A stretch of DNA of 64,000 nt, from positions 21,435 to 85,434 of the forward strand of contig JACDBH010000006.1 of assembly GCA_013694995.1 (NCBI GenBank), in the 5' to 3' direction. Origin of the DNA: Candidatus Saccharimonadota bacterium. Lineage in GTDB: Bacteria > Patescibacteriota > Saccharimonadia > Saccharimonadales > JACDBH01. The notes under the pieces were generated by a model. It ran no database searches, had not been told where the DNA came from, and worked only from the letters and a program-made list of their open reading frames with translations. Position numbers and translations under genes: made by a program. Shown piece by piece: positions 1,269-43,960 of this stretch; positions within the stretch are counted from its first letter, which is position 1; every line of letters starts with the position of its first letter.

Positions 1269-1345
1269 GGCGATGTAGCTCAGTTGGTTAGAGCACAGGA
1301 CTCATAAGCCTGGGGTCACTGGTTCAAATCCAGTCATCGCTACCA
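1269..1345 (+). tRNA. tRNA-Met (anticodon CAT), elongator type, CCA encoded
   Basis: Cloverleaf GGCGATG/TAGCTCAGTTGGTTAGAGCA/CAGGA-CTCATAA-GCCTG/GGGTC/ACTGGTTCAAATCCAGT/CATCGCT-ACCA. The D arm and variable region closely resemble E. coli elongator tRNA-Met. There is an A31:G39 mismatch. Confidence 0.8.
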
Positions 1346-20880: not shown

Positions 20881-20955
20881 TGGTAGCGGGGCTAGGACTC
20901 GAACCTAGGACCTCTTGGTTATGAGCCAAGCGAGCTGCCGCTGCTCCACCCCGCG
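20881..20955 (-). tRNA. initiator tRNA-fMet (anticodon CAT), CCA encoded
   Basis: The reverse complement is CGCGGGGTGGAGCAGCGGCAGCTCGCTTGGCTCATAACCAAGAGGTCCTAGGTTCGAGTCCTAGCCCCGCTACCA. It has a C1:U72 mismatch and A11:U24. The 5' half is nearly identical to E. coli tRNA-fMet. Only two of the three G-C pairs in the anticodon stem are present. Confidence 0.85.
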
Positions 20956-23726: not shown

Positions 23727-24272
23727 ATGCTTAAGAGAATCTCAGGCCTTTATACTAAAAAACCAGCCTTTAGTTTCCACCCTGATTTTATTGCCGGTAC
23801 AGTAGAGGAAATTGATTTTATAAAGCTGTCTGAATACGGTATTAAAGCTTGTTTTGTCGATTTGGACGGCACGGTCGTACATAGGGGTAATTTTGAGGTA
23901 AGCCCGAAAGTTATTAGTGTCTTGCGCTCCGTCAAGCTCAAGGTCTATATAGCTACCAACCGCCCCAAAGGCCGTGACCTAAAAAACCTTAAAGAAGACT
24001 TGGCCGCCCAAGGTGTAGCCCATCCGCACGGCATATTCGCCAAACCAACCAAGCGCTATTTTGTGAATGCCCTACAAGACAAAAATTTAAATCCGCATGA
24101 AGCCGTCATGATCGGTGACCGTTTTATCCAGGATATCTTGGGTGCAAACCGCGCCGGCATGTATTCCCTGCTGGTTTACAAGCTCGATAAGCCTATCGGG
24201 CTGCCGGACAGGATATTATCGACAATTGAGCGACGGCTGACCCTGTGGATATCAAAAAAGTACTTCAAATAA
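23727..24272 (+). CDS. HAD superfamily phosphatase, YqeG-like (subfamily IIIA)
   Basis: DLDGTVV (motif I), ATNRP (motif II), MIGDRFIQDILGANRAG (motif IV). An extended -10 TGGTATCAT lies 6 nt before the ATG. Confidence 0.75.
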   Translation: MLKRISGLYTKKPAFSFHPDFIAGTVEEIDFIKLSEYGIKACFVDLDGTVVHRGNFEVSPKVISVLRSVKLKVYIATNRPKGRDLKNLKEDLAAQGVAHPHGIFAKPTKRYFVNALQDKNLNPHEAVMIGDRFIQDILGANRAGMYSLLVYKLDKPIGLPDRILSTIERRLTLWISKKYFK

Positions 24273-26673
24273 GACGTTTGCGACTCATATACTGATAGGC
24301 AATTAGGCTGAATGGAATCGGCAGCCAAAAAGTTGCCAACCGGTAGAGTACAACTACTGACAAGGCTTCTGGCTTGGCTGTACCTAGTCCTAGCATGGCA
24401 CTAACCATGGCGATTTCAAGTGGCCCCAGCCCACCGGGCGTCGGCACCACGCTTTTAGCGATGACGGCGGAGGCATACACCAGCACCGCTTCGGCAAATC
24501 CTAGGTTTAGTCCAAAAGCTTTAAAACAAGCGTACAAACATACTACATAAGCCAGCGAAAACGCTAATGCTGATGCACAGGCCAATGCTACTTCAAAAGG
24601 CGAGTTGGTAAATTCCCGGATACTGGTTGCAAAACTAGATACCGCCGATACGACTTTTCTTTTTATTTTTTTATTCATGGCAAGTATAAAGATGGCTACT
24701 AGCAGCAATATTACAGCAATAACCGCCTGTCTGAGAGTTATATTGATAGCTATAACCGATGAAATACTCTCACCTTTGAAGAGCAGGAAAATACTGAGCG
24801 GCACAATGAACATCGCAAAACCAATAACATTGCCGGCAGCCAATATAGCAGCGGAATCCGCCCGATCGTTGCCTGCGCGGTAAAGGTAGCGAGCATTCAG
24901 ACTGGCGCTGCCGACCCCACCAGGAATGATTTTACTCATAAACGAAGCCGCCAACTGGGCAATAGTAGTTTGGATTACCTGCAAAGGCACGCTGGAGAGA
25001 ATTACGAAGACAATGGCCGCAAGAATGTAGGTCACTGCTGAGGAAATTAAAATCGGCACCAGCCAAGCGGCGTTTAATGAGGATAATGAACCTAAGGCTC
25101 CACGGAACAAATTGAACTGCGGGATTATAACGTACAATAGTACGCCGACAAGTACGACGTTAAAGACTTTACGCCTGTTAATACGGATAATATCCGCATC
25201 ATCAAGGTCTTCTTCTATGGCCAGGCGGTCTTTTATTTCCGTCTTCAAATCCTCCAGGAGCGATTTGTGGGATTTAAGGCTTTTCGCGGTTGCACCGCTA
25301 AAGACTTCTCGTTTTAGGTAAGGCAGCACCCGGGTCATCCGTTCCGGGTCAACCACTTCCATAGCAGCGTCCACTGTTCGCTCGACACCGACCACTAATG
25401 ACATCGACATTAATAGCTCAGCAATGTCCATATGTTGACGTTGTTTTCGCGGCGATACTTCGGCAAAGCCGAAATCAATTATCCAGGCTTGTCCCTGTTT
25501 GTCTATCATAAGATTAGCCGCACGCAGATCGCGGTGGGCCATATTGGACTCATGCATGAGGTTGACCTGGCTCCAGGCGTCGACCAGGCTTTTTTGCAGT
25601 AGTTTGCCGTGACTGGATAGCGAAGTAGCCTCAATTTTTTCCTGAATCAGCATCCATGACGAACGGACCTTAACTAAATCAACAATAACAGGAACTCTGA
25701 CACCGGCATTGCGCGCCCACAAAGTCGCGAGCGATTCCATTTCTATGTTGCGCCGGCTGCTGATAAACGGTTCTTCGGCCTGCAAGTTTTTAAAACGGAA
25801 AAACCTATAGGTCTTAAATAGCCAGTCGGCAGCATGCTCCTGGACGCCAAAAATCTTAGCAAAATATTTCTGGCCCTCAAGACCGGTCAAAAAATACGGC
25901 CGTGATCCCCTGGCATCGACATCAGCCAGTTGGATGTGCCTCATTTTATAGCCCTTTTTCCGGAGCGCTGTCTTAATCTGCCTAATAGTCAGAGACTGGA
26001 CAGATACGCCAAACAACAGACAGACTGTTGCGCCGAGTAATGCACCAAGCGCCCAGCCGCCAATAACGTCCAGTGGAAAATGCGCGCCCAAATACATACG
26101 GCTGAAACCGACGGCAAAAACTGCCAGCAGCAAATATTTGCGGTATGCCCGGTCTAATTGGAAGTACAGCACAGTTACGCAAGCTGCCACGAAAGTCGAA
26201 TGCCCTGACGGGAAGCCGTAACCGCCGAACTTTTCATCGCCGAACAGGCGTAAGCTATCCAGCAGCTCTTCCGGCCGGCCGCGTGCCACCAGCGTCTTCA
26301 TAAGTCGGGCTATGTTCCAGGCAAATATACCTGTGCCGGCAACGGTTAAAGCTGCCCGGCGGTTGATGAAAAACCAGGCAATGCCAACCCATAAGAATAA
26401 TGCCCCGACACCACCTAGCTGGGTGATAGCATACATCGTACTATCCAAGAATGTCGGCAAGTTATTAACAGCATCGAATAGCGGCCGCTCGAGGCTGTCA
26501 AATAATCCAGCGTCTAGAGCTTGGAGCGTACTGATAATTAATACGGCCAAAGCAAAAATAAATACGAATACATAGCGCGTGTCGCGTGTCTGGTTAGCAA
26601 AATACTTCTTGAGCCTTCCTAATTTTTTAGAAGTGCTCCTAAAAAGCTTCTTCAGTGCACTAGTAACTGTCAT
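24265..26673 (-). CDS. triple-domain membrane protein: PAP2 lipid phosphatase + protein-kinase-like domain + LPG-synthase-TM/flippase-like domain
   Basis: PAP2 motifs KTLVARGRP, PSGHS, SRMYLGAHFPLDV. Kinase-like HRDLRAANLMI and IIDFGFAE. The C-terminal ~290 aa is polytopic with the IPGGVGS/PTPGGLGPLE motifs typical of UPF0104/LPG_synthase_TM. Confidence 0.75.
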   Translation of the reverse strand: MTVTSALKKLFRSTSKKLGRLKKYFANQTRDTRYVFVFIFALAVLIISTLQALDAGLFDSLERPLFDAVNNLPTFLDSTMYAITQLGGVGALFLWVGIAWFFINRRAALTVAGTGIFAWNIARLMKTLVARGRPEELLDSLRLFGDEKFGGYGFPSGHSTFVAACVTVLYFQLDRAYRKYLLLAVFAVGFSRMYLGAHFPLDVIGGWALGALLGATVCLLFGVSVQSLTIRQIKTALRKKGYKMRHIQLADVDARGSRPYFLTGLEGQKYFAKIFGVQEHAADWLFKTYRFFRFKNLQAEEPFISSRRNIEMESLATLWARNAGVRVPVIVDLVKVRSSWMLIQEKIEATSLSSHGKLLQKSLVDAWSQVNLMHESNMAHRDLRAANLMIDKQGQAWIIDFGFAEVSPRKQRQHMDIAELLMSMSLVVGVERTVDAAMEVVDPERMTRVLPYLKREVFSGATAKSLKSHKSLLEDLKTEIKDRLAIEEDLDDADIIRINRRKVFNVVLVGVLLYVIIPQFNLFRGALGSLSSLNAAWLVPILISSAVTYILAAIVFVILSSVPLQVIQTTIAQLAASFMSKIIPGGVGSASLNARYLYRAGNDRADSAAILAAGNVIGFAMFIVPLSIFLLFKGESISSVIAINITLRQAVIAVILLLVAIFILAMNKKIKRKVVSAVSSFATSIREFTNSPFEVALACASALAFSLAYVVCLYACFKAFGLNLGFAEAVLVYASAVIAKSVVPTPGGLGPLEIAMVSAMLGLGTAKPEALSVVVLYRLATFWLPIPFSLIAYQYMSRKRLI

Positions 26674-28205: not shown

Positions 28206-28454
28206 ATGCCGACATTTAAAAAGCGAGTCAATTTTTATCTCTCCGAAGAAGGCATCCAAATCCAAGAAATACTGCGCACTATGGCCTTGGACGAGAAATA
28301 CAATACGGTTTCAAGCTATAGCGCCAACACCGAATCGTACCCCGATAACCTCATTCCTTTCGTTAATAAGCACATGGATTACCTCAACGCCCACCCGACC
28401 ACCGACCCGCAGCACTACCTGTCAAATCTGCGCCTGATGTGCCGCATCAAGTAA
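28206..28454 (+). CDS. hypothetical protein
   Basis: 82-aa ORF. A further 73-codon open frame without an ATG follows in another frame (28460..28681). Confidence 0.5.
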   Translation: MPTFKKRVNFYLSEEGIQIQEILRTMALDEKYNTVSSYSANTESYPDNLIPFVNKHMDYLNAHPTTDPQHYLSNLRLMCRIK

Positions 28455-30496: not shown

Positions 30497-30697
30497 TTAC
30501 TCATCTGGGACAACATCAGTTTCGGTTTGTCTTGCTTCCATGATATTTTCACATTCTTTGTCGCCAAACTCCTGTATGTATTGCAAGCTGCACTCCCTAT
30601 AGGTTTCGGGAGACTTTTTCCAAAAATAATTGAGCGCAAAATACGCAGCCACGGCTAGGACAATTAGAATTAAAAACTTTTTAAAATAGCTATCCAT
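30497..30697 (-). CDS. small membrane-anchored acidic protein
   Basis: 66 aa. N-terminal TM (FLILIVLAVAAYFALNYFW). Acidic C-terminal half ending ...TETDVVPDE. Divergent from the PafA/Dop-like gene. Confidence 0.45.
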   Translation of the reverse strand: MDSYFKKFLILIVLAVAAYFALNYFWKKSPETYRECSLQYIQEFGDKECENIMEARQTETDVVPDE

Positions 30698-30844
30698 GCA
30701 ATCAGTATACGCTTAAGCTTAATAAGCACTTCAATTCAGCTACTCTTAAGGTTGTATTACATAGAACCCATATCAGTACTACCTCTACTCCGGCTAATTT
30801 GCTTGTGCTTGCAAATTTAAAATTTTTATAGCAGGCTAAAGTCT

Positions 30845-32251
30845 ATGACTGAGAGAAATAACAGCCCTAACGTTTATGGTATTGAAACCGAATATACCTG
30901 CATGCTCACACTCCCCAATGATGTTGTTCACGAACTGGTTGGGAGCTGCCACTCGGTTGACGCGCGGATTGGGCTTTATGAAGCGCCGTCTGATAAAGGC
31001 AGCTCCGCAATACAAAGTCTAAGTATATCTCGCGCCCTAGAAAAAGTGGGAATATTCAGGAACTCAACCGGCATGCTCTCAAATGGTGGTAGGTTATACA
31101 TTGATCCAAGTGGCCCGGAGTACGCGACCCCCGAGACAACCACTGCCAAAGAAACCGTTTATCGATCGTTTGACGGTGATAAGATTTTACTGGGAATTTT
31201 TGACCGATTTCGCAACGACGGGATTCTCAAAGACTTCCAAGTTAACCGGCGGATCGTGGATCATAACCGTACTTCAAGAGGCATCCACTTGAATACTTTG
31301 ACTTCTTTAAACAACAGAGGACCCGATGACCTTGTGGCTAATTGGATTGCCACACTCAATGTCGTTAAGGGTGCAATGTTCGGATCGGGGGGATTGTTAG
31401 TTGACGATAAGGGTAAGACTGCCTACCACCATTCACCTAGGCTTTCTATAACAACCGATACGACCGCTAACTACAACAAGTATAAGCAAAGACCCCTGGT
31501 TAGAGGCCCGTTTAAAGGTGATGGTAATCAGTTTGCGCGGATAGAAACCGTAACTAGTGACGCCCTTAACTTTGGGTGGCCACTGCGCGCAAGCCTGGTT
31601 GCAACCAATGCTTTTGTCGGGATATTAGAGCTGGGATATGGTGATAAGTGCCCTCGCCTTAGGAATCCAGTTAGTTCCGCGCATTTTGTAGGCAGGCTTG
31701 GTAGTGAAGGTAAGGTAGAAATTATAAAAGGCGAAAGCACTGCCACTGCCCGCCCATTAGATATAATGCGTCAAATTTGTGAAATAGTTTTAGAAGTTGA
31801 TGATAAAGAAAAGTATTTAGATAAAGAGTCGGATCAGGTAATCGGCGAGATAATCGATACGGCAGACAAAATGAGCACCGATATTTATAGCGTTGCCGAC
31901 CAAGTAGAATCCGTGGGCAGATTGGTCGCAATGCAGAGGAAAATGGATAAAGCCAAGATCGCACTAGATTCAGAAAGAATGTGTCGGTTTGATTATGCGT
32001 GGGACTGGTTAAGGGGCGGCATAGCCGAGACTTTAAGAGATAAGAGGTTAGCTGGCTGGCAGGGCTTTGGGGACACTCCGTCTGTGGCGACTGTACGCAG
32101 GAGGCTAACTACCCCTCCTCAAGACACACGAGCTAAAGTCAGGGGCGAAAATATAAAATTGAGTCATGGTACTAATGATTCCACATGGGATCAGATCGAT
32201 TTTGGTACCCACCAGCAATACGTTCATCCGTTAGATTCCCACAGATCTTAG
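30845..32251 (+). CDS. Pup ligase/deamidase (PafA/Dop) family carboxylate-amine ligase homolog, divergent
   Basis: N-terminal VYGIETEYTCM (the GxETE[FY] signature) and NGGRLYIDPSGPEYATPE (compare NGARLY.D..HPEY[AS]TPE). The GCHENY-type motif is degenerate (RGIHLNT). 468 aa. Confidence 0.7.
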   Translation: MTERNNSPNVYGIETEYTCMLTLPNDVVHELVGSCHSVDARIGLYEAPSDKGSSAIQSLSISRALEKVGIFRNSTGMLSNGGRLYIDPSGPEYATPETTTAKETVYRSFDGDKILLGIFDRFRNDGILKDFQVNRRIVDHNRTSRGIHLNTLTSLNNRGPDDLVANWIATLNVVKGAMFGSGGLLVDDKGKTAYHHSPRLSITTDTTANYNKYKQRPLVRGPFKGDGNQFARIETVTSDALNFGWPLRASLVATNAFVGILELGYGDKCPRLRNPVSSAHFVGRLGSEGKVEIIKGESTATARPLDIMRQICEIVLEVDDKEKYLDKESDQVIGEIIDTADKMSTDIYSVADQVESVGRLVAMQRKMDKAKIALDSERMCRFDYAWDWLRGGIAETLRDKRLAGWQGFGDTPSVATVRRRLTTPPQDTRAKVRGENIKLSHGTNDSTWDQIDFGTHQQYVHPLDSHRS

Positions 32252-32320: not shown

Positions 32321-32683
32321 TTATTCGTGAGAGTCTTGCGTGACATCGGCTTCATAACCCCAATCACTTTGCCACTGTTTCATTTGGGCGATTTCTTGTT
32401 CTTGTGCGGTAATGATATTGCGTGACAATTCTTTGATTTCTTCATGCTTTGCCTGCCCTTCGGCTAATTTGGCCATTCCTACCGCGCCTTCGTGGTGGGC
32501 AATCATAGAGTTAATAAATTCTTCATCAAATTCATCGCCGCGCTTATTAGTTAAAGACTCTGTCATGGACTGCATGCTATCGCTGCTAGCAACCGGTTTT
32601 TCGATTGTGGTTGCAACAATTGAGACTAGTAGACCGCCTGCCATAAAGCTGATGATTCCGATAAGCAAAGACTTGGTATTCAT
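32321..32683 (-). CDS. DUF305 family protein (copper-stress associated), membrane-anchored
   Basis: N-terminal TM. FDEEFINSMIAHHEGAVGMAKL and ITAQEQEIAQMKQW match DUF305 repeats. Confidence 0.75.
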   Translation of the reverse strand: MNTKSLLIGIISFMAGGLLVSIVATTIEKPVASSDSMQSMTESLTNKRGDEFDEEFINSMIAHHEGAVGMAKLAEGQAKHEEIKELSRNIITAQEQEIAQMKQWQSDWGYEADVTQDSHE

Positions 32684-32704
32684 TTCTGTTTCCTCCTGAT
32701 TAAG

Positions 32705-32989
32705 TTAACGTGACAGCATCCGGCTGACGGCCGTTACTAGTTCTTCGGCTTTGGCTTCAGTTCCCTTTGGCCCGATGTTGTCGTTAGCAAGACAATGCCG
32801 GGCGTGTTCGCCGAGCAACTCCAAGGCGACTTTATCAAGGGCAGCCTGGGCAGCGTTGATTTGGGTCAGAATATCCACGCAGTATTTATCTTCCACGACC
32901 ATCCGAGTTACGCCGCGCACTTGGCCTTCTACCCGGTTTAACCGCTTCACTATCTGCTCTTTGTTCTTGGTGTAACCGTATGTGTTCAT
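32705..32989 (-). CDS. csoR: CsoR/RcnR family metal-sensing transcriptional repressor
   Basis: RLNRVEGQVRGVTRMVVEDKYCVDILTQINAAQAALDKVALELLGEHARHCL contains the Cys...His-x3-Cys Cu(I) ligand pattern. Confidence 0.85.
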   Translation of the reverse strand: MNTYGYTKNKEQIVKRLNRVEGQVRGVTRMVVEDKYCVDILTQINAAQAALDKVALELLGEHARHCLANDNIGPKGTEAKAEELVTAVSRMLSR

Positions 32990-33474
32990 GCTGTTTCCTT
33001 ATGAGTGTGGTGATGGGCTTCAGCTTCGTCAAGCTCATGCATTTCATGCATTAGTGCGTGGCCTTTGCCGCGTTTTAGCAAATATAAGTTTACTGGGTAC
33101 GAGGCAAAGTACGCTGCCGTTAACGCTAAGGCCATCCCTAGCCAAAAGATAGGGTTAACCAGCCCAGCTTCCATGGCGCCGGGTATAACTGCCATAACGG
33201 TATTATCGACCAGCTCCATAGTCGCAATTGATAAAGTATCGGCCGCAAACACTAGGCTTAGAGCTGCCCCCAAAGCTATGCCCGATTTAACCAGCGGCAA
33301 AGCCGACAGCGAATAACCAAAGATAAATGACAACCCAACTGCCAGAGCAATTGTAGGCAGTGTGCTAAGTCCTATGGCCGTGCCGATAATTAGACCCAGT
33401 ATTTCGCCGATAGCACACCCTGTCAGACAGTGGAGAGTAGCGCTTTTTGCTAAAGATTGGATGTTATTATGCAT
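32986..33474 (-). CDS. DUF4396 membrane protein, first gene of the CsoR operon
   Basis: LHCLTGCAIGEILG motif. 4 TM. His-rich C-terminus (EAEAHHHTH). Overlaps csoR by 4 nt. Confidence 0.7.
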   Translation of the reverse strand: MHNNIQSLAKSATLHCLTGCAIGEILGLIIGTAIGLSTLPTIALAVGLSFIFGYSLSALPLVKSGIALGAALSLVFAADTLSIATMELVDNTVMAVIPGAMEAGLVNPIFWLGMALALTAAYFASYPVNLYLLKRGKGHALMHEMHELDEAEAHHHTHKETA

Positions 33475-33590: not shown

Positions 33591-33716
33591 TTATTCCTCG
33601 TTAAAAGACCTGTTTTCAGACTGTTTTATCAATTGCTCCAGGCGGGCTTGGTCTTCGCTTTTCTTTACATAAGCCGTGGTTTCAATCTTGTTATATTTTC
33701 TTTTTTTGTCAGCCAT
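33591..33716 (-). CDS. small highly charged protein (41 aa), below the ORF-track cutoff
   Basis: MADKKRKYNKIETTAYVKKSEDQARLEQLIKQSENRSFNEE. Strong SD AAGGAG lies 7 nt upstream. A terminator lies downstream. Confidence 0.5.
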   Translation of the reverse strand: MADKKRKYNKIETTAYVKKSEDQARLEQLIKQSENRSFNEE

Positions 33717-33862
33717 GGTAAAGCTCCTTTTACTTACTACTCTTTTACCATAAACTTTTAATCATTATCAAACAGTAAGGAATCTAACATATAGCAATCC
33801 CAAAACAAAATGACGCTTTTTGGCCGCGACCAAAATGAATGGTTTCTTATAATGATTACAAT

Positions 33863-33934
33863 TTAGAAAACGAACATTATAACTGCTATCAAACCTATCA
33901 CCGCAAGAATGGTAATAATTGTGCTGCGACCCAT
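33863..33934 (-). CDS. 23-aa hydrophobic mini-ORF (type I toxin-like or small membrane peptide)
   Basis: MGRSTIITILAVIGLIAVIMFVF. SD-like GAAAGG lies 8 nt upstream. A TACAAT -10-like box lies about 30 nt upstream. It sits just downstream of the terminator at 34011-34046. Confidence 0.35.
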   Translation of the reverse strand: MGRSTIITILAVIGLIAVIMFVF

Positions 33935-34010
33935 ATAGTTGGCCTTTCGTTATTAATTTCACTCCCAATTGTAGAAAAATTAAAAGCTAATAACCGTAAA
34001 ATAGCTTACA

Positions 34011-34046
34011 TTAAAAAACCTTGCGGAGGTCAGACCTCCGCAAGGT
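34011..34046 (-). terminator. strong rho-independent terminator (minus strand)
   Basis: ACCTTGCGGAGG-TCTGA-CCTCCGCAAGGT forms a 12-bp stem, followed on the minus strand by TTTTTTAA. Confidence 0.6.
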
Positions 34047-34618
34047 ACTACGGTTAGTAAGTATATGAATACTTAAATAAAATAGAACCATATGTCATCA
34101 GTTAGGTCATTTCGCGCATTCCTTCGGAATGCCGAGCGAGTATCTTTTGGACCGCCAAAAGATACCAAAAACTCTCTGGCTGCGTTTTTTCTTGATAGAG
34201 CCACCAGTCATAGCAAACAACAGGGCTTCGGAACTCGCTAGCGCTCAAACAGCCTAGCCCTATTTTGTTGTTTGTATGACGTGGCTCTTCAGGAAAAAGC
34301 CGATGCCAAGTAGCCCCCATGGATACGGCCCAACTGGCCGATATTTTATACGTGCTCGCTCCAAGGAGCGAGCTTCTGCTTTAAACCCCAGCATCTGAAA
34401 AGTCCGGTGAATATTGTGGCAAAAGGAGCGAATCAAGCAAAAGTGTGCTCGAATGCCTACTTAAAGTTAAAGTATTCGAGCCGCTTGCCGTTCTTTTGCG
34501 CGCTCTCTTTTGCTACAATTTTCAGCCGTGACTTTTCAGCCGCTGGTCAGTTTTTTGGCTTCTTTTTTGCTGAACCAAAAAAGAAGCGACTTGGTTCTTG
34601 GTCGCAAGAACAAATAAA
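34047..34618 (-). ncRNA. candidate structured non-coding RNA region, unclassified (strand tentative)
   Basis: About 570 nt between two minus-strand terminators, with no credible ORF. Stable helices: 34116-34132 (7 bp), 34140-34165 (11 bp), 34214-34274 (9+3 bp enclosing), 34354-34373 (8-9 bp), 34388-34546 (rod), 34558-34587 (12 bp). Confidence 0.3.
34388..34546. repeat. 159-nt imperfect long hairpin (rod-like inverted repeat)
   Basis: Nested complementary pairs: CCAGC/GCTGG, CTGAAAAGTC-CGG/CCG-T-GACTTTTCAG, ATTGTGGCAAAAGGAGCG/CGCTCTCTTTTGCTACAAT, GCAAAAG/CTTTTGC, CTCGAAT/ATTCGAG. Confidence 0.7.
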
Positions 34619-34646
34619 ATAGAGCCCCTGTACTGTGGGGCTCTAT
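34611..34646 (-). terminator. rho-independent terminator after 34667..34975
   Basis: ATAGAGCCCC - 8 nt - GGGGCTCTAT forms a 10-bp stem. The minus strand continues TTTATTTG. Confidence 0.6.
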
Positions 34647-34664
34647 TGTTTAGTAAACTTTTAT
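34646..34664 (+). repeat. 19-bp direct repeat, copy B (TTGTTTAGTAAACTTTTAT)
   Basis: Identical to 33557..33575, 1089 bp away, in the same position relative to a stop codon and terminator. Confidence 0.7.
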
Positions 34665-34666
34665 AT

Positions 34667-37319: not shown

Positions 37320-37724
37320 TTATTCGGTAACCTCGACTACGCCCTTCATGTACGGGTGTGGAGAGCAGTTATAGCTGTAGCTACCTACTGTATTGAAGGT
37401 AACACTGTATGTTTCGCCTTTAGCAAGCAGTGGGCCTTCTTTGAAATCGTCTGTGGCATCTTCGGGAGTTACGTTGTGCTTGGCATCATCGTTATTGGTC
37501 CAGGTAACAGTAGTGCCCTTTTTAACTGAAATGTTGGCTTGCTTGAAGGCAAAGTCTTCGATTGATACTGCGTTCGGGGCTGTTGCTGTCTCTGTATCTG
37601 CTGTCTCGCTGCTGTTCATGTTCATTGTGCTCATGTCATCGCTGCCTTTATCTTTTTTGAGAAGACTTGAGATGCCAACCACAGCTATGACAGCGATGAG
37701 TGCAATAATAATAAATTTTTTCAT
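37320..37724 (-). CDS. type-1 copper (plastocyanin/amicyanin-like) cupredoxin, membrane-anchored
   Basis: N-terminal TM. VTWTNNDDAKHNV (His ligand) and YSYNCSPHPYMKG (Cys-x2-His-x2-Met ligands). Confidence 0.8.
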   Translation of the reverse strand: MKKFIIIALIAVIAVVGISSLLKKDKGSDDMSTMNMNSSETADTETATAPNAVSIEDFAFKQANISVKKGTTVTWTNNDDAKHNVTPEDATDDFKEGPLLAKGETYSVTFNTVGSYSYNCSPHPYMKGVVEVTE

Positions 37725-39705: not shown

Positions 39706-40182
39706 ATGGGAATTAGAGCAACCAGCGGCCACGAATTTGGTGAACCCACCCCGCATGTAATGCGCGCGGCGGCATTTGCGCAGATAAACCAGTTTGTCCT
39801 AAATTCGGGACGCAAAGAGCAAGTTACTGAGATAATCCCGCTCGAAACCGAGCCAGAAATTGATATTGACCGACCCCCTATTAATACCGCATCGTCAACG
39901 GCACTACCGCCACTCAATTGGGACTCTGAAGCAATACAAAAACTGCGTAACTGTATTGATAAGCCACGTGGGCTATTTTTCCCCGAACCTGGCCCTAACC
40001 TCAAGGATCGTCAAAAGCTGGCTAAAGCCATCTGCGCGGAGTGTATCATTAACGACCTTTGCCTTGATGAAGCCCTGAAGAACAGTCAAAATGTTGGCAT
40101 TTGGGGCGGTACAACAAAAGGCGAACGCAAAAAGATTATCAATGCTCGCAGCCAAGCCGCCCAGGAAACTGAGGTGGCATGA
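39706..40182 (+). CDS. WhiB-like (Wbl) Fe-S transcription factor paralog 1, long N-terminal extension
   Basis: Four Cys: RNC...AKAICAECIINDLCLDEAL...VGIWGGTTKGERKKI (C-x2-C-x5-C, GIWGG turn, basic tail). SD GGAG upstream. Confidence 0.8.
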   Translation: MGIRATSGHEFGEPTPHVMRAAAFAQINQFVLNSGRKEQVTEIIPLETEPEIDIDRPPINTASSTALPPLNWDSEAIQKLRNCIDKPRGLFFPEPGPNLKDRQKLAKAICAECIINDLCLDEALKNSQNVGIWGGTTKGERKKIINARSQAAQETEVA

Positions 40183-40198
40183 ATATTAGGTATATCAA

Positions 40199-40711
40199 AT
40201 GAGCATTGAGACAGTGAACGATTGGCAGAGCAAGGAACCGACTGCTGAGGAGCTTCAACAAGTCGAATTACAAGCAATACTCGAAGCCAGGATAAAACAA
40301 ATGGATCCCGGAGACTTGAGGTATTGGCACAGCGCAATTTTGGATAGAGATTTCGAGGCAGACATTGAATTTGAAACTGAGGATCGTGTTAAGGAAGCCG
40401 CTGTATATTCAGATAATCCAATACCTACTGGAAAAACCACTGACTCCTACTGGAGGAGTAAGGGTTCTTGCCTAGGAGCAAACCTAAAATTATTTTATCC
40501 CGATAAAACCGGCAGATACGCTAGAGCAAATAACTACAACATAGTGTTACAAGCAAAAGCAATCTGCGAGACATGCGTGGTTCGTGTTGAATGCCTGGAA
40601 AATGCGCTAGAAAACAACGAGCAGTACGGCATATGGGGCGGGAAGACTGAAGATGAGCGTGACGAGCTTCTTAGGCGACAAGGTCATTCTGAACGAAACG
40701 TAAGTGCATAA
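40199..40711 (+). CDS. WhiB-like (Wbl) paralog 2
   Basis: GSCLG...AKAICETCVVRVECLENALENNEQYGIWGGKTEDERDELLRRQ. The ~100-aa acidic N-terminal extension is unrelated to that of paralog 1. Confidence 0.8.
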   Translation: MSIETVNDWQSKEPTAEELQQVELQAILEARIKQMDPGDLRYWHSAILDRDFEADIEFETEDRVKEAAVYSDNPIPTGKTTDSYWRSKGSCLGANLKLFYPDKTGRYARANNYNIVLQAKAICETCVVRVECLENALENNEQYGIWGGKTEDERDELLRRQGHSERNVSA

Positions 40712-40730: not shown

Positions 40731-41120
40731 ATGAGCCCAAACCGGATCCCAAGAGGTGATTATTACCTAGAAACCAACCCAAATGGCGAAATAAAGCCCG
40801 ATAGTTCTCAGGTGTCGATAGGCAACAGCGACAGGCGTTTAGGAGAATTTGCTTTAGGGTTAGGGCTTTGGGCTTTCGAGGAGTGGCGGGCTTATGCGGC
40901 CTGCGCGGGGCTGAATCCTGATATATTTTTCCCTACGACAGATTATGACATAGAAGTAGCAAAAGCAATTTGTGCCGACTGTGGCGTTAGTCAAGAGTGC
41001 CTCAACTATTCCCAAGAACGCCCAGAGGTATACGGCATATGGGGGGGTAAAAATAAAGCTGAACGTCGGGCCTTACGGCACAGAGAGTCCGGCCATCCAC
41101 CTGAGAAATTGGTTGTATAA
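40731..41120 (+). CDS. WhiB-like (Wbl) paralog 3
   Basis: AACAGLNPDIFFP...AKAICADCGVSQECLNYSQERPEVYGIWGGKNKAERRAL. TATAAT (40717-40722) lies 8 nt before the ATG. Confidence 0.8.
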   Translation: MSPNRIPRGDYYLETNPNGEIKPDSSQVSIGNSDRRLGEFALGLGLWAFEEWRAYAACAGLNPDIFFPTTDYDIEVAKAICADCGVSQECLNYSQERPEVYGIWGGKNKAERRALRHRESGHPPEKLVV

Positions 41121-41129
41121 TATATCCTA

Positions 41130-41453
41130 ATGAGGAAAGAAACCCCATCTTCAATCGAAGCAGATCCGCCGCTTCATCCAGCCCAGGCAGCAGAACTTGC
41201 AAATGCCAGAGAGGCCTTTGAACTAAATAAAACTGATGAGTTGTGGAAGGAATTTGGATACTGCGCAGGCAAGCAAAAAGAGTTTATGAAAAACAGTATA
41301 GCCGCAACAGCTATGTGCGATGTCTGTTTGGTCAAAGTTGAATGTCTGGAATTCGCAATTGAGAATAATCAGAATTTTTATATTTGGGGCGGCAAAACAC
41401 CTTCAGAACGCAAACGCCTGATCAAACGGCGTAACCAGGCCCCCAAGAAGTAA
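41130..41453 (+). CDS. WhiB-like (Wbl) paralog 4
   Basis: GYCAG...ATAMCDVCLVKVECLEFAIENNQNFYIWGGKTPSERKRLIKRR. TATAAT (41116-41121) lies 8 nt before the ATG. Confidence 0.8.
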   Translation: MRKETPSSIEADPPLHPAQAAELANAREAFELNKTDELWKEFGYCAGKQKEFMKNSIAATAMCDVCLVKVECLEFAIENNQNFYIWGGKTPSERKRLIKRRNQAPKK

Positions 41454-41706: not shown

Positions 41707-41782
41707 GGGGGCGTAGCTCAGTGGTTAGAGCAGAGGACTCATAATCCTTTGGCCGTTGGTTCAAGTCCAACCGCCCCCACCA
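41707..41782 (+). tRNA. tRNA with CAT anticodon, probably tRNA-Ile2 (lysidine-modified), CCA encoded
   Basis: GGGGGCG/TAGCTCAGTGGTTAGAGCA/GAGGA-CTCATAA-TCCTT/TGGCC/GTTGGTTCAAGTCCAAC/CGCCCCC-ACCA. The D arm, anticodon loop, variable loop and T arm closely resemble E. coli ileX. The Ile2-versus-Met assignment is inferred only. Confidence 0.8.
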
Positions 41783-41839: not shown

Positions 41840-42754
41840 ATGAATAAAGACCAGTATTTTATAAGCGAAAAGATGCTTGATGTTGGTGAAGGTCACACGC
41901 TGTACATTCAAGAGTGGGGCAAGCCCGATTCATCTAACCCTATTGTCTTTCTACACGGCGGACCAGGAAGCCAAGTTAAAGATAAGCATAAAGGGGCGTT
42001 TGACCCGAAAACCCAGCGCGTAATCTTCTTTGACCAGCGCGGCTGTGGCAAAAGCACTCCTTATGGCTCACTTGAGAACAATACTACCGACAAGCTGATT
42101 GAAGACATATCAAAAATAGCAGACACTTTTAATGCAAAAACTTTTGTTCTTCACGGCAGCTCTTGGGGGTCAACGCTCGCGCTGGCTTACGCGCTTGCAC
42201 ATCCTGAGCGCGTACACGCCTTAGTCATCGGTGGCATATTTACTGGCTCAAAAGCAGAGGCAAACTGGATTGATAAAGGGCATTTCAAAACATTCTTTCC
42301 TGATGTCTGGCAAGACTACCTTGATAGAACCCCAGCCGAACACCACAATGACCCAAGCAAATACCACTTTGATAAAGTCGTTAATGGTACGACTAAGGAA
42401 CAGAAGTTATCGGGTTACGCGTATGATTGTCTTGAGGCGGGCGTTATCCAGCTTAGTGACCGATACGAGGCAGAGGATTTCGGGGAATACGACCCCACAG
42501 GTATACGACTTGAGATGCACTATCTATCAAATGGATGCTTTCTACCAGACCGTCACATACTAGATAAGGCTGACAAGCTAAGTATGCCCGTTCATATTGT
42601 GCAAGGTCGCTATGATATGGTCTGCCCACCTCATACCGCTTACGAACTAAATGCTAAGTTACCAAACAGTAAATTGTATTGGACCTTGAGCGGTCATAAG
42701 CACGAACACGAAGGCGAGAATATCTTTAGAAGTATCTTTGCCTCTCTTGTCTAA
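41840..42754 (+). CDS. pip: prolyl aminopeptidase (proline iminopeptidase), alpha/beta hydrolase
   Basis: HGGPGS oxyanion motif, the GSSWGS nucleophile elbow and a C-terminal GH. 304 aa. Confidence 0.8.
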   Translation: MNKDQYFISEKMLDVGEGHTLYIQEWGKPDSSNPIVFLHGGPGSQVKDKHKGAFDPKTQRVIFFDQRGCGKSTPYGSLENNTTDKLIEDISKIADTFNAKTFVLHGSSWGSTLALAYALAHPERVHALVIGGIFTGSKAEANWIDKGHFKTFFPDVWQDYLDRTPAEHHNDPSKYHFDKVVNGTTKEQKLSGYAYDCLEAGVIQLSDRYEAEDFGEYDPTGIRLEMHYLSNGCFLPDRHILDKADKLSMPVHIVQGRYDMVCPPHTAYELNAKLPNSKLYWTLSGHKHEHEGENIFRSIFASLV

Positions 42755-42997
42755 TGGAGGTATAGTAGTTAGCTGTTTCAAACGCTTTCGTCTTATACAC
42801 TAGCCACCTTAGAGTACATAGCTAACCTCAGTTAGCGTACTGGCTCTAATCCTTCCCAGACAACGGCGTGTACTGTCCCAGCCCTCTGCAATATCTGCTA
42901 GGATATCTCAAGCGGGCGTGTTTCAAATAAGCTAAGATCATTCCCACCATAACCAATTTCAAACGATTTAACGAGTCTCGCTTCGGGTAAAATTCAC

Positions 42998-43960
42998 TTA
43001 AATTCGGGCTTGGCGGCGCTTGCGGTAGAACATTGTCAGTACGCCGTTTGCATAGACAATAGTAATGACTGCCATGATGCCAAAAGACAAGACTTTGTGT
43101 ATGCCAACTGAGTGTTGAATCGCGCGAGATAGTAAAAATTCCGCGGTTAATACAACGGATAAAATCCCATATACAGCTGTTAGAAACAGTTTGCCTTTGC
43201 TGCTAAGGAGTTGGCGGGTGCGTTTAATAACCTGCTTGTAGGACAAGTTTCGTTCAAACAGCGCGACCAGAGGCATAAGGCCATAATTTACAAGTACATA
43301 AAAGCTGATAGCTACGGCCGCAATAATGTAATAAGGCAACAGCTTAAGCGTTTCCTCTTGAGTAGTTTTGAACGCAAGGAAGTGTATCAGCCCAATAACA
43401 GCTATAGCCAATACCGGTACGGCAATCATCGATAAAAGCATCAGCCAAGAAACGGTGGTCCTGCCAATATTGTGCAGGCCGTCGTAAAGAGTGGCGCGAA
43501 CAGAGCGGATTCTTTTACTATTTGCACCCTGCATGATGGCAACCGACATAGAGTTAAGGATAAAAGCCAGGACCCACGCGAAGGCTGCGGTTAGCGAGCT
43601 GGCGGCAATAAGTGAAATTAAAAACATGTTTGCCCCGCTGGCTTCGGATATGAAGTAAGCTGTCATGAAGAATGCATAAGTCATCTCTGTGGCAATCATG
43701 ACATAGACATAGCCTAAGATTGCGGCAATTACGGTAACCGCTATAAATATATCCTCATTACGACGGATTGACTGCTTTAAATCACCGTTGGCGGTAGCTA
43801 GAAAATACTGGCGGCGATACCACGACAAACTTAGGCGTTTTGTTCTACGGACGTTGGCTTTAGTTAACCGCTGAGCCCGCAATTTGAGCGCTTTAATATT
43901 ACGGCTTGTGGGCAGCCGGGTTAACCTGGTTAGATATTCAGCTTGTAACTGCGTGATCAT
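42998..43960 (-). CDS. polytopic membrane protein, unknown function
   Basis: 320 aa with a basic N-terminus and about 7 TM helices. Confidence 0.55.
   Translation of the reverse strand: MITQLQAEYLTRLTRLPTSRNIKALKLRAQRLTKANVRRTKRLSLSWYRRQYFLATANGDLKQSIRRNEDIFIAVTVIAAILGYVYVMIATEMTYAFFMTAYFISEASGANMFLISLIAASSLTAAFAWVLAFILNSMSVAIMQGANSKRIRSVRATLYDGLHNIGRTTVSWLMLLSMIAVPVLAIAVIGLIHFLAFKTTQEETLKLLPYYIIAAVAISFYVLVNYGLMPLVALFERNLSYKQVIKRTRQLLSSKGKLFLTAVYGILSVVLTAEFLLSRAIQHSVGIHKVLSFGIMAVITIVYANGVLTMFYRKRRQARI

Follow-up and report, generated by a model that had tools for sequence, protein, structure and literature searches.

Pupylation is taught as an actinobacterial process that takes two paralogous enzymes, the modifier Pup and an AAA unfoldase, and usually a proteasome. 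The locus analyzed here raises the question of what a single enzyme of the PafA/Dop family does by itself in a member of the Saccharibacteria. It lies in a stretch of 64,000 nucleotides from contig JACDBH010000006.1 of a Candidatus Saccharimonadota bacterium (assembly GCA_013694995.1; the whole stretch is called the window below), in which an earlier note, made from the sequence alone, had pointed out an orphan, divergent gene of the Pup ligase/deamidase type. The gene in question is the following:

30845 to 32251, plus strand: stand-alone gene for a Pup_ligase-family (Dop/PafA-like) enzyme of 468 amino acids, recognized by its open reading frame (ORF), PF03136, an NCBI match, an AlphaFold2 model and Foldseek

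According to the reading that we favor, to which we assign a probability of roughly 0.55, its product is an active, cytoplasmic, ATP/Mg2+-dependent enzyme of the PafA/Dop fold that represents a deep Saccharibacteria branch, is neither PafA nor Dop and stands outside a Pup-proteasome cluster. The statements below on the family of the enzyme, its clade and its stand-alone position are made with high confidence. The earlier note had set the locus at 30497 to 32251; the enzyme gene begins at 30845, and the remainder takes in a divergent ORF of 66 amino acids that no evidence ties to the enzyme.

Family membership and fold

The 468-amino-acid protein matched the Pfam family Pup_ligase (PF03136, gathering cutoff 25 bits) with 109.2 bits and E = 3e-31, residues 10-441 aligning with positions 2-429 of the 441 in the profile, a full-length match in the profile search that the earlier note had proposed. 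The scores against both equivalog models were far under their cutoffs, with 75.3 bits versus 492.3 for Dop (TIGR03688) and 61.7 bits versus 551.3 for PafA (TIGR03686), and the protein is therefore an orthologue of neither; family membership and divergence within the family, both claimed from the letters, thus hold. The exact match at NCBI is annotated as 'proteasome accessory factor PafA2 family protein [Candidatus Saccharibacteria bacterium]' (record JAITZI010000001.1, GCA_020063845.1). No N-terminal signal peptide was found in the protein, in which the strand carrying the first motif of the family, GhExE, starts already at residue 12.

A sequence search of solved structures returned matches to Dop (E ~1e-9) and PafA (E = 2e-5) only, both of them near full length. 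The AlphaFold2 model, built from 47 clade sequences, was confident except for residues 29-48 (predicted local distance difference test score, pLDDT, 89; predicted template modelling score 0.91) and displayed the two-domain fold of the family, a glutamine synthetase-like beta-sheet cradle followed by a small C-terminal domain. In Foldseek this model aligned over about 480 columns, C-terminal domain included, with template modelling (TM) scores of 0.79 to Dop (4b0r) and 0.75 to PafA (4bjr), compared to 0.45 for YbdK/GCS2 and about 0.3 for glutamine synthetases; to our knowledge the small C-terminal domain is absent from the GCS2 structures matched here and from the GCS2 and glutamine synthetase families. 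Neither Pfam nor NCBIfam gave a GCS2 or glutamine synthetase profile match. On the strength of the PF03136 score and the TM values the protein is a genuine full-length member of the PafA/Dop family and not a GCS2 or glutamine synthetase enzyme, and the better fit to these families that the earlier note had named as its refutation is excluded. Within the PafA/Dop family the protein resembles Dop, the hydrolase/deamidase, slightly more than PafA in its architecture, and does so consistently: the NCBIfam, PDB and Foldseek scores, a three-residue spacer after the catalytic Asp and an insertion loop before strand beta2 all go in this direction.

Conserved and replaced active-site residues

The three motifs that had been read from the sequence, GIETEY (residues 12-17), NGGRLYIDPSGPEYATPE (80-97) and RGIHLNT (145-151), are present in the 468-amino-acid ORF as described, and the role of the first, GhExE, is taken from PMC7947786. 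Together with two further stretches they make up the putative active site and the C-terminal signature:

30878 to 30895, plus strand: GIETEY (residues 12-17), the GhExE nucleotide/Mg motif; G12, E14 and E16 are found in at least 94% of the clade and equal the PafA/Dop consensus

31082 to 31135, plus strand: NGGRLYIDPSGPEYATPE (residues 80-97), which spans strands beta2 and beta3 and includes the catalytic Asp87 as well as Glu92, a metal ligand, from the clade alignment

31280 to 31294, plus strand: G146-I-H148-L149-N150, the 'GxHEN' strand, here with Leu in place of Glu; H148 and N150 do not vary, L149 occurs in 83% of the clade

31538 to 31561, plus strand: R232-I-E234-T-V-T-S-D239, the 'RLHxxxGD' strand, in which Glu occupies the position of the phosphate-contacting His; R232 and D239 do not vary, E234 occurs in 98%

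32114 to 32143, plus strand: PPQDTRAKVR (residues 424-433), motif of the small C-terminal domain; P425, R429, A430 and R433 are invariant, T428 occurs in 98%

The alignment of the 47 clade sequences, which are 36-66% identical to the window protein, contained 40 invariant and 61 nearly invariant columns. N80, G81, Y85, D87, E92 and E97 were invariant; N80, G81, R83, Y85 and D87 as well as G12, E14 and E16 were conserved at 94-100% across the clade, and W448 at 98%, this Trp and the residues of the C-terminal motif being identical to the PafA/Dop consensus. As a reference we took the 59 alignment columns in which 12 PafA-type and 11 Dop-type sequences have the same residue, conserved to at least 90% in each set. 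The clade retains 31 of these, among them G12, E14, E16, N80, G81, R83, Y85, D87, E92, Y93, E97, D139, G146, H148, S197, R199, R216-P217, R232, D239, E262, P425, T428, R429, A430, R433 and W448, while N150, although invariant within the clade, is outside the 59. Because 40 columns are invariant although the most divergent members share only about 36% identity with the window protein, the alignment indicates purifying selection on what would be an active enzyme.

Three consistent changes were observed at positions common to PafA and Dop. Gly90 replaces the His that precedes PEY in both enzymes (98% of the clade), Leu149 the Glu of GxHEN (83%) and Glu234 the His of the RLHxxxGD strand (98%); the last of these His residues corresponds to Dop H241 (Acel), which hydrogen-bonds the active-site phosphate mimic (PMC8599861). 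In the core clade sample all 25 of 25 sequences had Gly at 90, Leu, Ile or His at 149 and Glu at 234, and outside the core clade Glu at 234 was present in only two sampled sequences. Replacement of the GxHEN Glu by Val, Ile, Leu, Met, Ala or Thr recurs in other branches of the family, which keep the His. The degenerate motif that the earlier note had singled out is thus real, but the weight placed on it is not borne out, Glu to Leu being a recurrent change. As side chains alternate along a beta-strand, Leu149 should face away from the cradle in the modelled strand 147-153, with H148 and N150 facing into it, and the HEN change is therefore probably the least important of the three; G90 and E234 are on the cradle face. 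At the positions listed by Hecht et al. as discriminating PafA from Dop (PMC7947786) the protein is mixed, the three-residue spacer after Asp and Pro96 being Dop-like and Ala94 PafA-like.

Three changed positions in an otherwise conserved site, together with a split gene copy in one relative (L010), could also be expected of a pseudo-enzyme or a decaying gene in which the lost Glu and His have ended activity and left a scaffold or relic. We give this explanation hardly any credence: the catalytic Asp and all nucleotide and metal ligands are among the 40 invariant columns, the residues at the replaced positions hardly vary within the clade (G90 98%, E234 98%), which speaks for selection of a new configuration and not for drift, and only one of 17 loci lacks an intact ORF.

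A Cys-His loop at the Dop-loop position

The region of the model with low confidence coincides with a sequence element that distinguishes the clade:

30929 to 30988, plus strand: clade-specific loop, residues 29-48, hE[IL]VGxCHSxDxxLGLYxxP, inserted at the Dop-loop position

It is located between beta1 and beta2, where the protein is about 25-30 residues longer than PafA and where Dop has its Dop-loop. Residues 29-34 and 42-48 have a pLDDT below 50 in the AlphaFold2 model. Despite this modelled disorder the loop is among the most conserved sequence of the clade, with E30 in 44, G33 in 46, C35 in 46 and H36 in 45 of the 47 sequences. The Dop-loop is described as conserved and mobile, entering the empty active site and modulating ATP hydrolysis, and as carrying a conserved Trp and acidic residues (PMC8599861); the loop region of the window protein has no Trp at all and its motif is unrelated to that of the Dop-loop. 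In analogy to the Dop-loop, the Cys-His loop may serve to gate the remodelled active site or to complete it.

Distribution and phylogeny

About 103 clusters at the 90% identity level share 35-67% identity with the window protein, and all of those with a taxon name are Saccharibacteria or Saccharimonadales. Database scores drop from 255 to 76 bits at the first family members outside the clade, which include actinobacterial PafA and Dop at 23-26% identity. In a pattern-based scan with one genome for each GTDB species, which may have missed some loci, we found 15 loci, all in Saccharibacteria or in metagenome-assembled genomes labelled 'bacterium' from environmental samples; with no more loci than these, the gene seems to be accessory in some environmental lineages and not universal. 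The ligase ORF is intact in 16 of the 17 clade loci whose surroundings were read. At L010 (65-1500) the gene is split into the overlapping ORFs 65-1015 and 1003-1500 by either a frameshift (pseudogene) or an assembly error.

A neighbor-joining tree of 171 sequences, with PafA and Dop reference sets defined by motif and not by curated annotation, gave mean distances of the clade of 2.42 to PafA and 2.46 to Dop, the distance between PafA and Dop being 1.38. The tree separates the clade and its stand-alone neighbors from candidate phyla radiation (CPR)-type genomes from both enzymes, in 98 of 100 bootstraps; a grouping of the clade with Dop alone was never observed in 100 bootstraps. The equal distances and the bootstrap values argue for the Saccharibacteria clade being an old, separate branch, and recent capture from an actinobacterial host was rejected on divergence (23-26% identity) and tree position.

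The family as a whole is broader than PafA and Dop. A profile search of 1.84 billion representatives yielded 1,694 Pup_ligase family members (representatives at 50% identity), with graded intermediates of 300 to 125 bits that bridge the core clade and typical PafA/Dop scores, one of them from the genome 'Saccharibacteria bacterium CPR2'. In the analyzed sample, which comprised the best-scoring 150 of these, 119 of the 171 sequences belonged to neither the PafA nor the Dop motif class. Many such members have a GTEME-type first motif or GYH[VIL]N in place of GxHEN, and uncharacterized Pup_ligase-family diversity reaches well beyond the Saccharibacteria clade. A distant protein of this family, unrelated to the clade, is encoded at 42231-43349 of phage MT835496.1 (159 kb, unannotated, human faeces), with 24% identity over 80% of the query and E = 1e-7.

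Genomic context and search for Pup partners

The context was read in 21 loci, 17 of the clade (including the window) and four of the outgroup (L017, L018, L020 and L021), the material being the 64-kb window and, in the relatives, 10 kb on each side of the gene. The Pfam scan of the window covered all ORFs of at least 500 amino acids and nearly all of 200-400, and no match to a proteasome subunit, an AAA+ unfoldase or the Pup family was found among the scanned ORFs; likewise, no mpa/arc, pup/UBact or prcB/prcA was present among the called genes of the six annotated loci. Each locus had one Pup_ligase-family member, and the four outgroup homologues were equally solitary. The orphan status claimed for the gene is consequently confirmed, with no Pup, proteasome or Mpa gene beside it in the window, the 16 other clade loci or the four outgroup loci. 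An all-against-all BLASTP comparison of ORFs of at least 30 amino acids in the 10-kb flanks identified no neighbor common to the 17 clade loci; the only groups spanning several loci were shadow ORFs within the ligase gene and generic histidine-kinase/response-regulator paralogues, and synteny around the ligase was limited to closely related genome pairs.

For Pup itself the M. tuberculosis protein served as query, its sequence having been checked against PDB 7px9. The best match in a six-frame phmmer search of 331 kb (window and loci) had E = 1.8, the Pfam Pup family gave no match among the 150 non-overlapped small ORFs nearest the ligases, and C-termini of the type GG[Q/E] or G[Q/E] occurred on no credible free small ORF near the ligases. 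Two small ORFs had been put forward in the earlier note as speculative modifiers:

30497 to 30697, minus strand: divergent ORF of 66 amino acids, judged to be outside the system; hydrophobic anchor, singleton

33591 to 33716, minus strand: ORF of 41 amino acids ending in NEE, judged to be outside the system; singleton cluster

Both exist with the C-termini given there, but as singletons without counterparts neither qualifies for a modifier role. The 66-amino-acid ORF has a membrane anchor (hydropathy 2.17, residues 8-26), forms a singleton cluster and was called in only one of two annotations; it had no Pup family match and no counterpart in the other loci. The 41-amino-acid ORF, which sits beyond an opposite-strand, three-gene copper-type cluster, is likewise a singleton and had no tblastn match in the other loci even at E = 10. 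An ORF of 82 amino acids (28206-28454, plus strand) was rejected as a partner as well, being present in only two of 17 loci, without a family match and with a C-terminus that is not Glu or Gln; its homologue at L008 (7959-8210) is 41% identical (E ~1e-25), and both are located about 2 kb upstream of the ligase. The convergent ORFs of about 500 amino acids downstream of the ligase in several loci turned out to be mutually unrelated (a metallophosphoesterase, a DUF1996 protein and ORFs without a family).

This context bears on the explanation that the gene is a detached but conventional pafA or dop whose pup (or UBact), mpa and prcBA lie elsewhere in the genome. Its pipeline name, 'proteasome accessory factor PafA2 family protein', fits such a component, it shares its fold and catalytic core with Dop and PafA, the readable part of the genome amounts to 64 kb, and UBact-type clusters have been reported from some candidate phyla, CPR lineages among them. 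We nevertheless consider this explanation improbable. The scores are 6- to 9-fold under both equivalog cutoffs, the clade is equidistant from PafA and Dop and groups with neither, and there is one family member per locus versus the two enzymes of the canonical system. Moreover, no Pup, proteasome or AAA+ gene was found in the 21 loci within up to 10 kb on each side, whereas dop, pup and prcBA are normally clustered, and bacterial proteasomes are described as being essentially confined to Actinobacteria (PMC6466877; PMC7947786).

At one outgroup locus (L018, 7269-11380) the homologue comes directly after a Mur ligase gene and a D-Ala-D-Ala ligase gene and is followed by one for leucyl-tRNA synthetase, an arrangement that, as a single case, is the sole hint of a cell-wall link. 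It would suit recruitment to small-molecule chemistry, in which amide ligation or hydrolysis acts on a metabolite or cell-wall precursor in the manner of GCS2, glutamine synthetase or Mur enzymes and the protein tag has been abandoned. The gene occurs alone without a partner, two cradle positions that PafA and Dop both keep have changed, and the wider superfamily (GCS2, glutamine synthetase, GCL) works on small molecules. We regard such a recruitment as unlikely, considering that the PafA/Dop C-terminal domain with its PPxDTRAxxRG/W448 motif is intact, that the TM scores to small-molecule ligases are 0.45 or less, and that the Mur/Ddl adjacency is confined to one outgroup locus and found in none of the 17 core loci.

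The neighbors are those named in the earlier note: a surface protein, which has a weak match to the WxL-interacting-protein domain, the copper genes, which form a copper-type cluster of CsoR, DUF305 and DUF4396, and small orphans. The copper-type cluster adjoins the ligase in no other locus. The further features of the window were:

32321 to 33474, minus strand: DUF305, a CsoR-type metal-sensing repressor and DUF4396, directly downstream of the ligase and convergent with it

37320 to 37724, minus strand: cupredoxin gene, 4 kb beyond the copper-type cluster

about 33717 to 34666: about 1 kb without a convincing ORF or Rfam match, between the copper-type cluster and a secreted-protein gene pair

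24265 to 26673, minus strand: fusion protein of 802 amino acids, PAP2 phosphatase, protein-kinase-like and lysyl-phosphatidylglycerol-synthase transmembrane regions

39706 to 40182, 40199 to 40711, 40731 to 41120 and 41130 to 41453, plus strand: four tandem WhiB-domain genes, with PF02467 on all four

1269 to 1345 (plus strand), 20881 to 20955 (minus strand) and 41707 to 41782 (plus strand): three tRNA-Met (CAT) genes

These three tRNAs were the only Rfam matches in the window, and they may include initiator, elongator and tRNA-Ile2-type genes. A promoter and terminator scan found sites no more numerous than in shuffled controls. An origin in a defence system or phage was rejected, with no PADLOC match and no clade relative in IMG/VR.

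The first WhiB ORF scored 59.7 bits in a direct scan versus a cutoff of 23.6, and in the CPR2-type locus L017 a WhiB gene is located 1.4 kb from the Pup_ligase homologue. Hosts of Saccharibacteria are typically Actinobacteria, which are the main users of Pup, and the four WhiB genes belong to a family regarded as actinobacterial; with the Dop-leaning architecture, these points could be taken to favor a host-directed enzyme, a depupylase or deamidase acting on host Pup or on pupylated host proteins. Such a role appears very unlikely to us, as the protein lacks a signal peptide or recognizable secretion signal, the clade is deeply diverged (23-26% identity) and not a recent actinobacterial acquisition, and similar stand-alone homologues are present in other CPR-type genomes. 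Saccharibacteria are described as obligate epibionts (PMC8764695; PMC11659515), and according to a 2026 paper Wbl proteins are exclusive to Actinobacteria and actinophages.

Proposed function

The favored active enzyme of the PafA/Dop fold would perform the core chemistry of the family and make or break an amide bond at the carboxyl or carboxamide group of a side chain, presumably by way of an acyl-phosphate intermediate generated from ATP. The known family members act on terminal Glu or Gln. Its substrate would be a peptide or protein whose gene lies in another part of the genome or which comes from outside the cell. We prefer a peptide or protein over a small molecule only tentatively, at somewhat short of even odds.

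Several points weigh against this reading. It comes with no substrate, modifier or partner, and the peptide-directed mechanism depends on homology at 17-26% identity. Two cradle His residues common to PafA and Dop, including the one that contacts the phosphate in Dop, are replaced, and therefore the chemistry could differ. The absence of pup/UBact, mpa and prcBA covers the 64-kb window and the 10-kb flanks, and a distant copy may exist. The tree is distance-based and has no outgroup, so that the clade could formally be a fast-evolving Dop derivative.

A bolder proposal, which we consider rather doubtful, is that the clade and the stand-alone CPR-type homologues form a third functional class, a single-enzyme, proteasome-independent system for tagging, untagging or deamidation of proteins or peptides with a modifier unrelated to Pup, or, in a rarer version, one directed at the Pup machinery of the actinobacterial host. 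In such a class Glu would take the place of the phosphate-holding His, and the mobile, conserved Cys-His loop would supply catalytic or regulatory groups.

The existence of the protein is not new, because annotation pipelines already label it by its Pfam family. In the library that was searched, no publication links Saccharibacteria or Patescibacteria with pupylation, and a search for UBact gave irrelevant matches only. What is new is the description of a distinct, conserved and solitary subfamily that has a loop and an active-site configuration of its own. The surprise is partly softened by the sporadic homologues already known, and the subfamily comes without an identified partner or phenotype. 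All divergent branches whose context was examined are solitary and from small genomes, and the Saccharibacteria and CPR2 examples come from CPR organisms. If the enzyme is active, as its conservation suggests, the PafA/Dop scaffold would be used independently of the proteasome and of known Pup, and this in organisms whose reduced genomes keep little that is dispensable. With one gene, a confident model and defined targets (D87, E234 and C35/H36), the clade offers a tractable entry to ancestral or alternative functions of the fold, and since Saccharibacteria live on Actinobacteria, the bearing of the enzyme on the host pupylome becomes a question.

Comparison with known systems

The closest known system is Dop (TIGR03688; PDB 4B0R, 5LRT, 7OXV-7OYH and 9CKU), which was the best sequence match among solved structures and shares the two-domain fold (TM 0.79). 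Common to both are GhExE, NGxRxYxD with the catalytic Asp, PEY, the arginines that bind the phosphate, His and Asn in GxHxN and, at the C-terminus, the PPxDTRA/Trp motif, as well as the three-residue spacer between Asp and PEY and an insertion before beta2. In contrast, sequence identity is about 18% and the score 75 bits versus a cutoff of 492. The Dop-loop has 40-65 residues with a conserved Trp and an acidic stretch, while the Saccharibacteria insertion is shorter and has the motif E30/G33/C35/H36; D-HAH-PEY of Dop is D-PSG-PEY in the Saccharibacteria protein, H241 of Acel corresponds to Glu234, and no pup, mpa or prcBA adjoins the Saccharibacteria gene.

PafA (TIGR03686; PDB 4B0T and 4BJR) likewise has the fold (TM 0.75) and the catalytic core in common with the Saccharibacteria protein, and Ala-Thr follows PEY in both. 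PafA differs in having D-VGSH-PEY, with an inserted Val and Gly-Ser, where the Saccharibacteria protein has D-PSG-PEY without the extra residue, and in having no insertion before beta2, where the latter has about 25-30 residues more. The Saccharibacteria gene is found without pafBC or proteasome surroundings, and a Pup ending in Glu or Gln, the substrate of PafA, was not found in the window or in the flanks of up to 10 kb of the related loci.

Sporadic PafA/Dop homologues outside Actinobacteria have been reported, those of Planctomycetes being single-copy and partly aligning with the Dop-loop (PMC7947786, Hecht et al.). Like the Saccharibacteria enzyme, these homologues of Planctomycetes and other sporadic phyla occur alone and are roughly as close to PafA as to Dop (29-31% identity). 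They have been used as an outgroup only and are uncharacterized, and the Saccharibacteria clade is more divergent (23-26%), with cradle substitutions and a loop motif of its own. Finally, GCS2/YbdK and glutamine synthetase also have the beta-sheet cradle and follow the ATP/Mg2+ acyl-phosphate logic of the superfamily (PMC8599861), but their structural likeness is far weaker, with TM scores of 0.45 and about 0.3, respectively.

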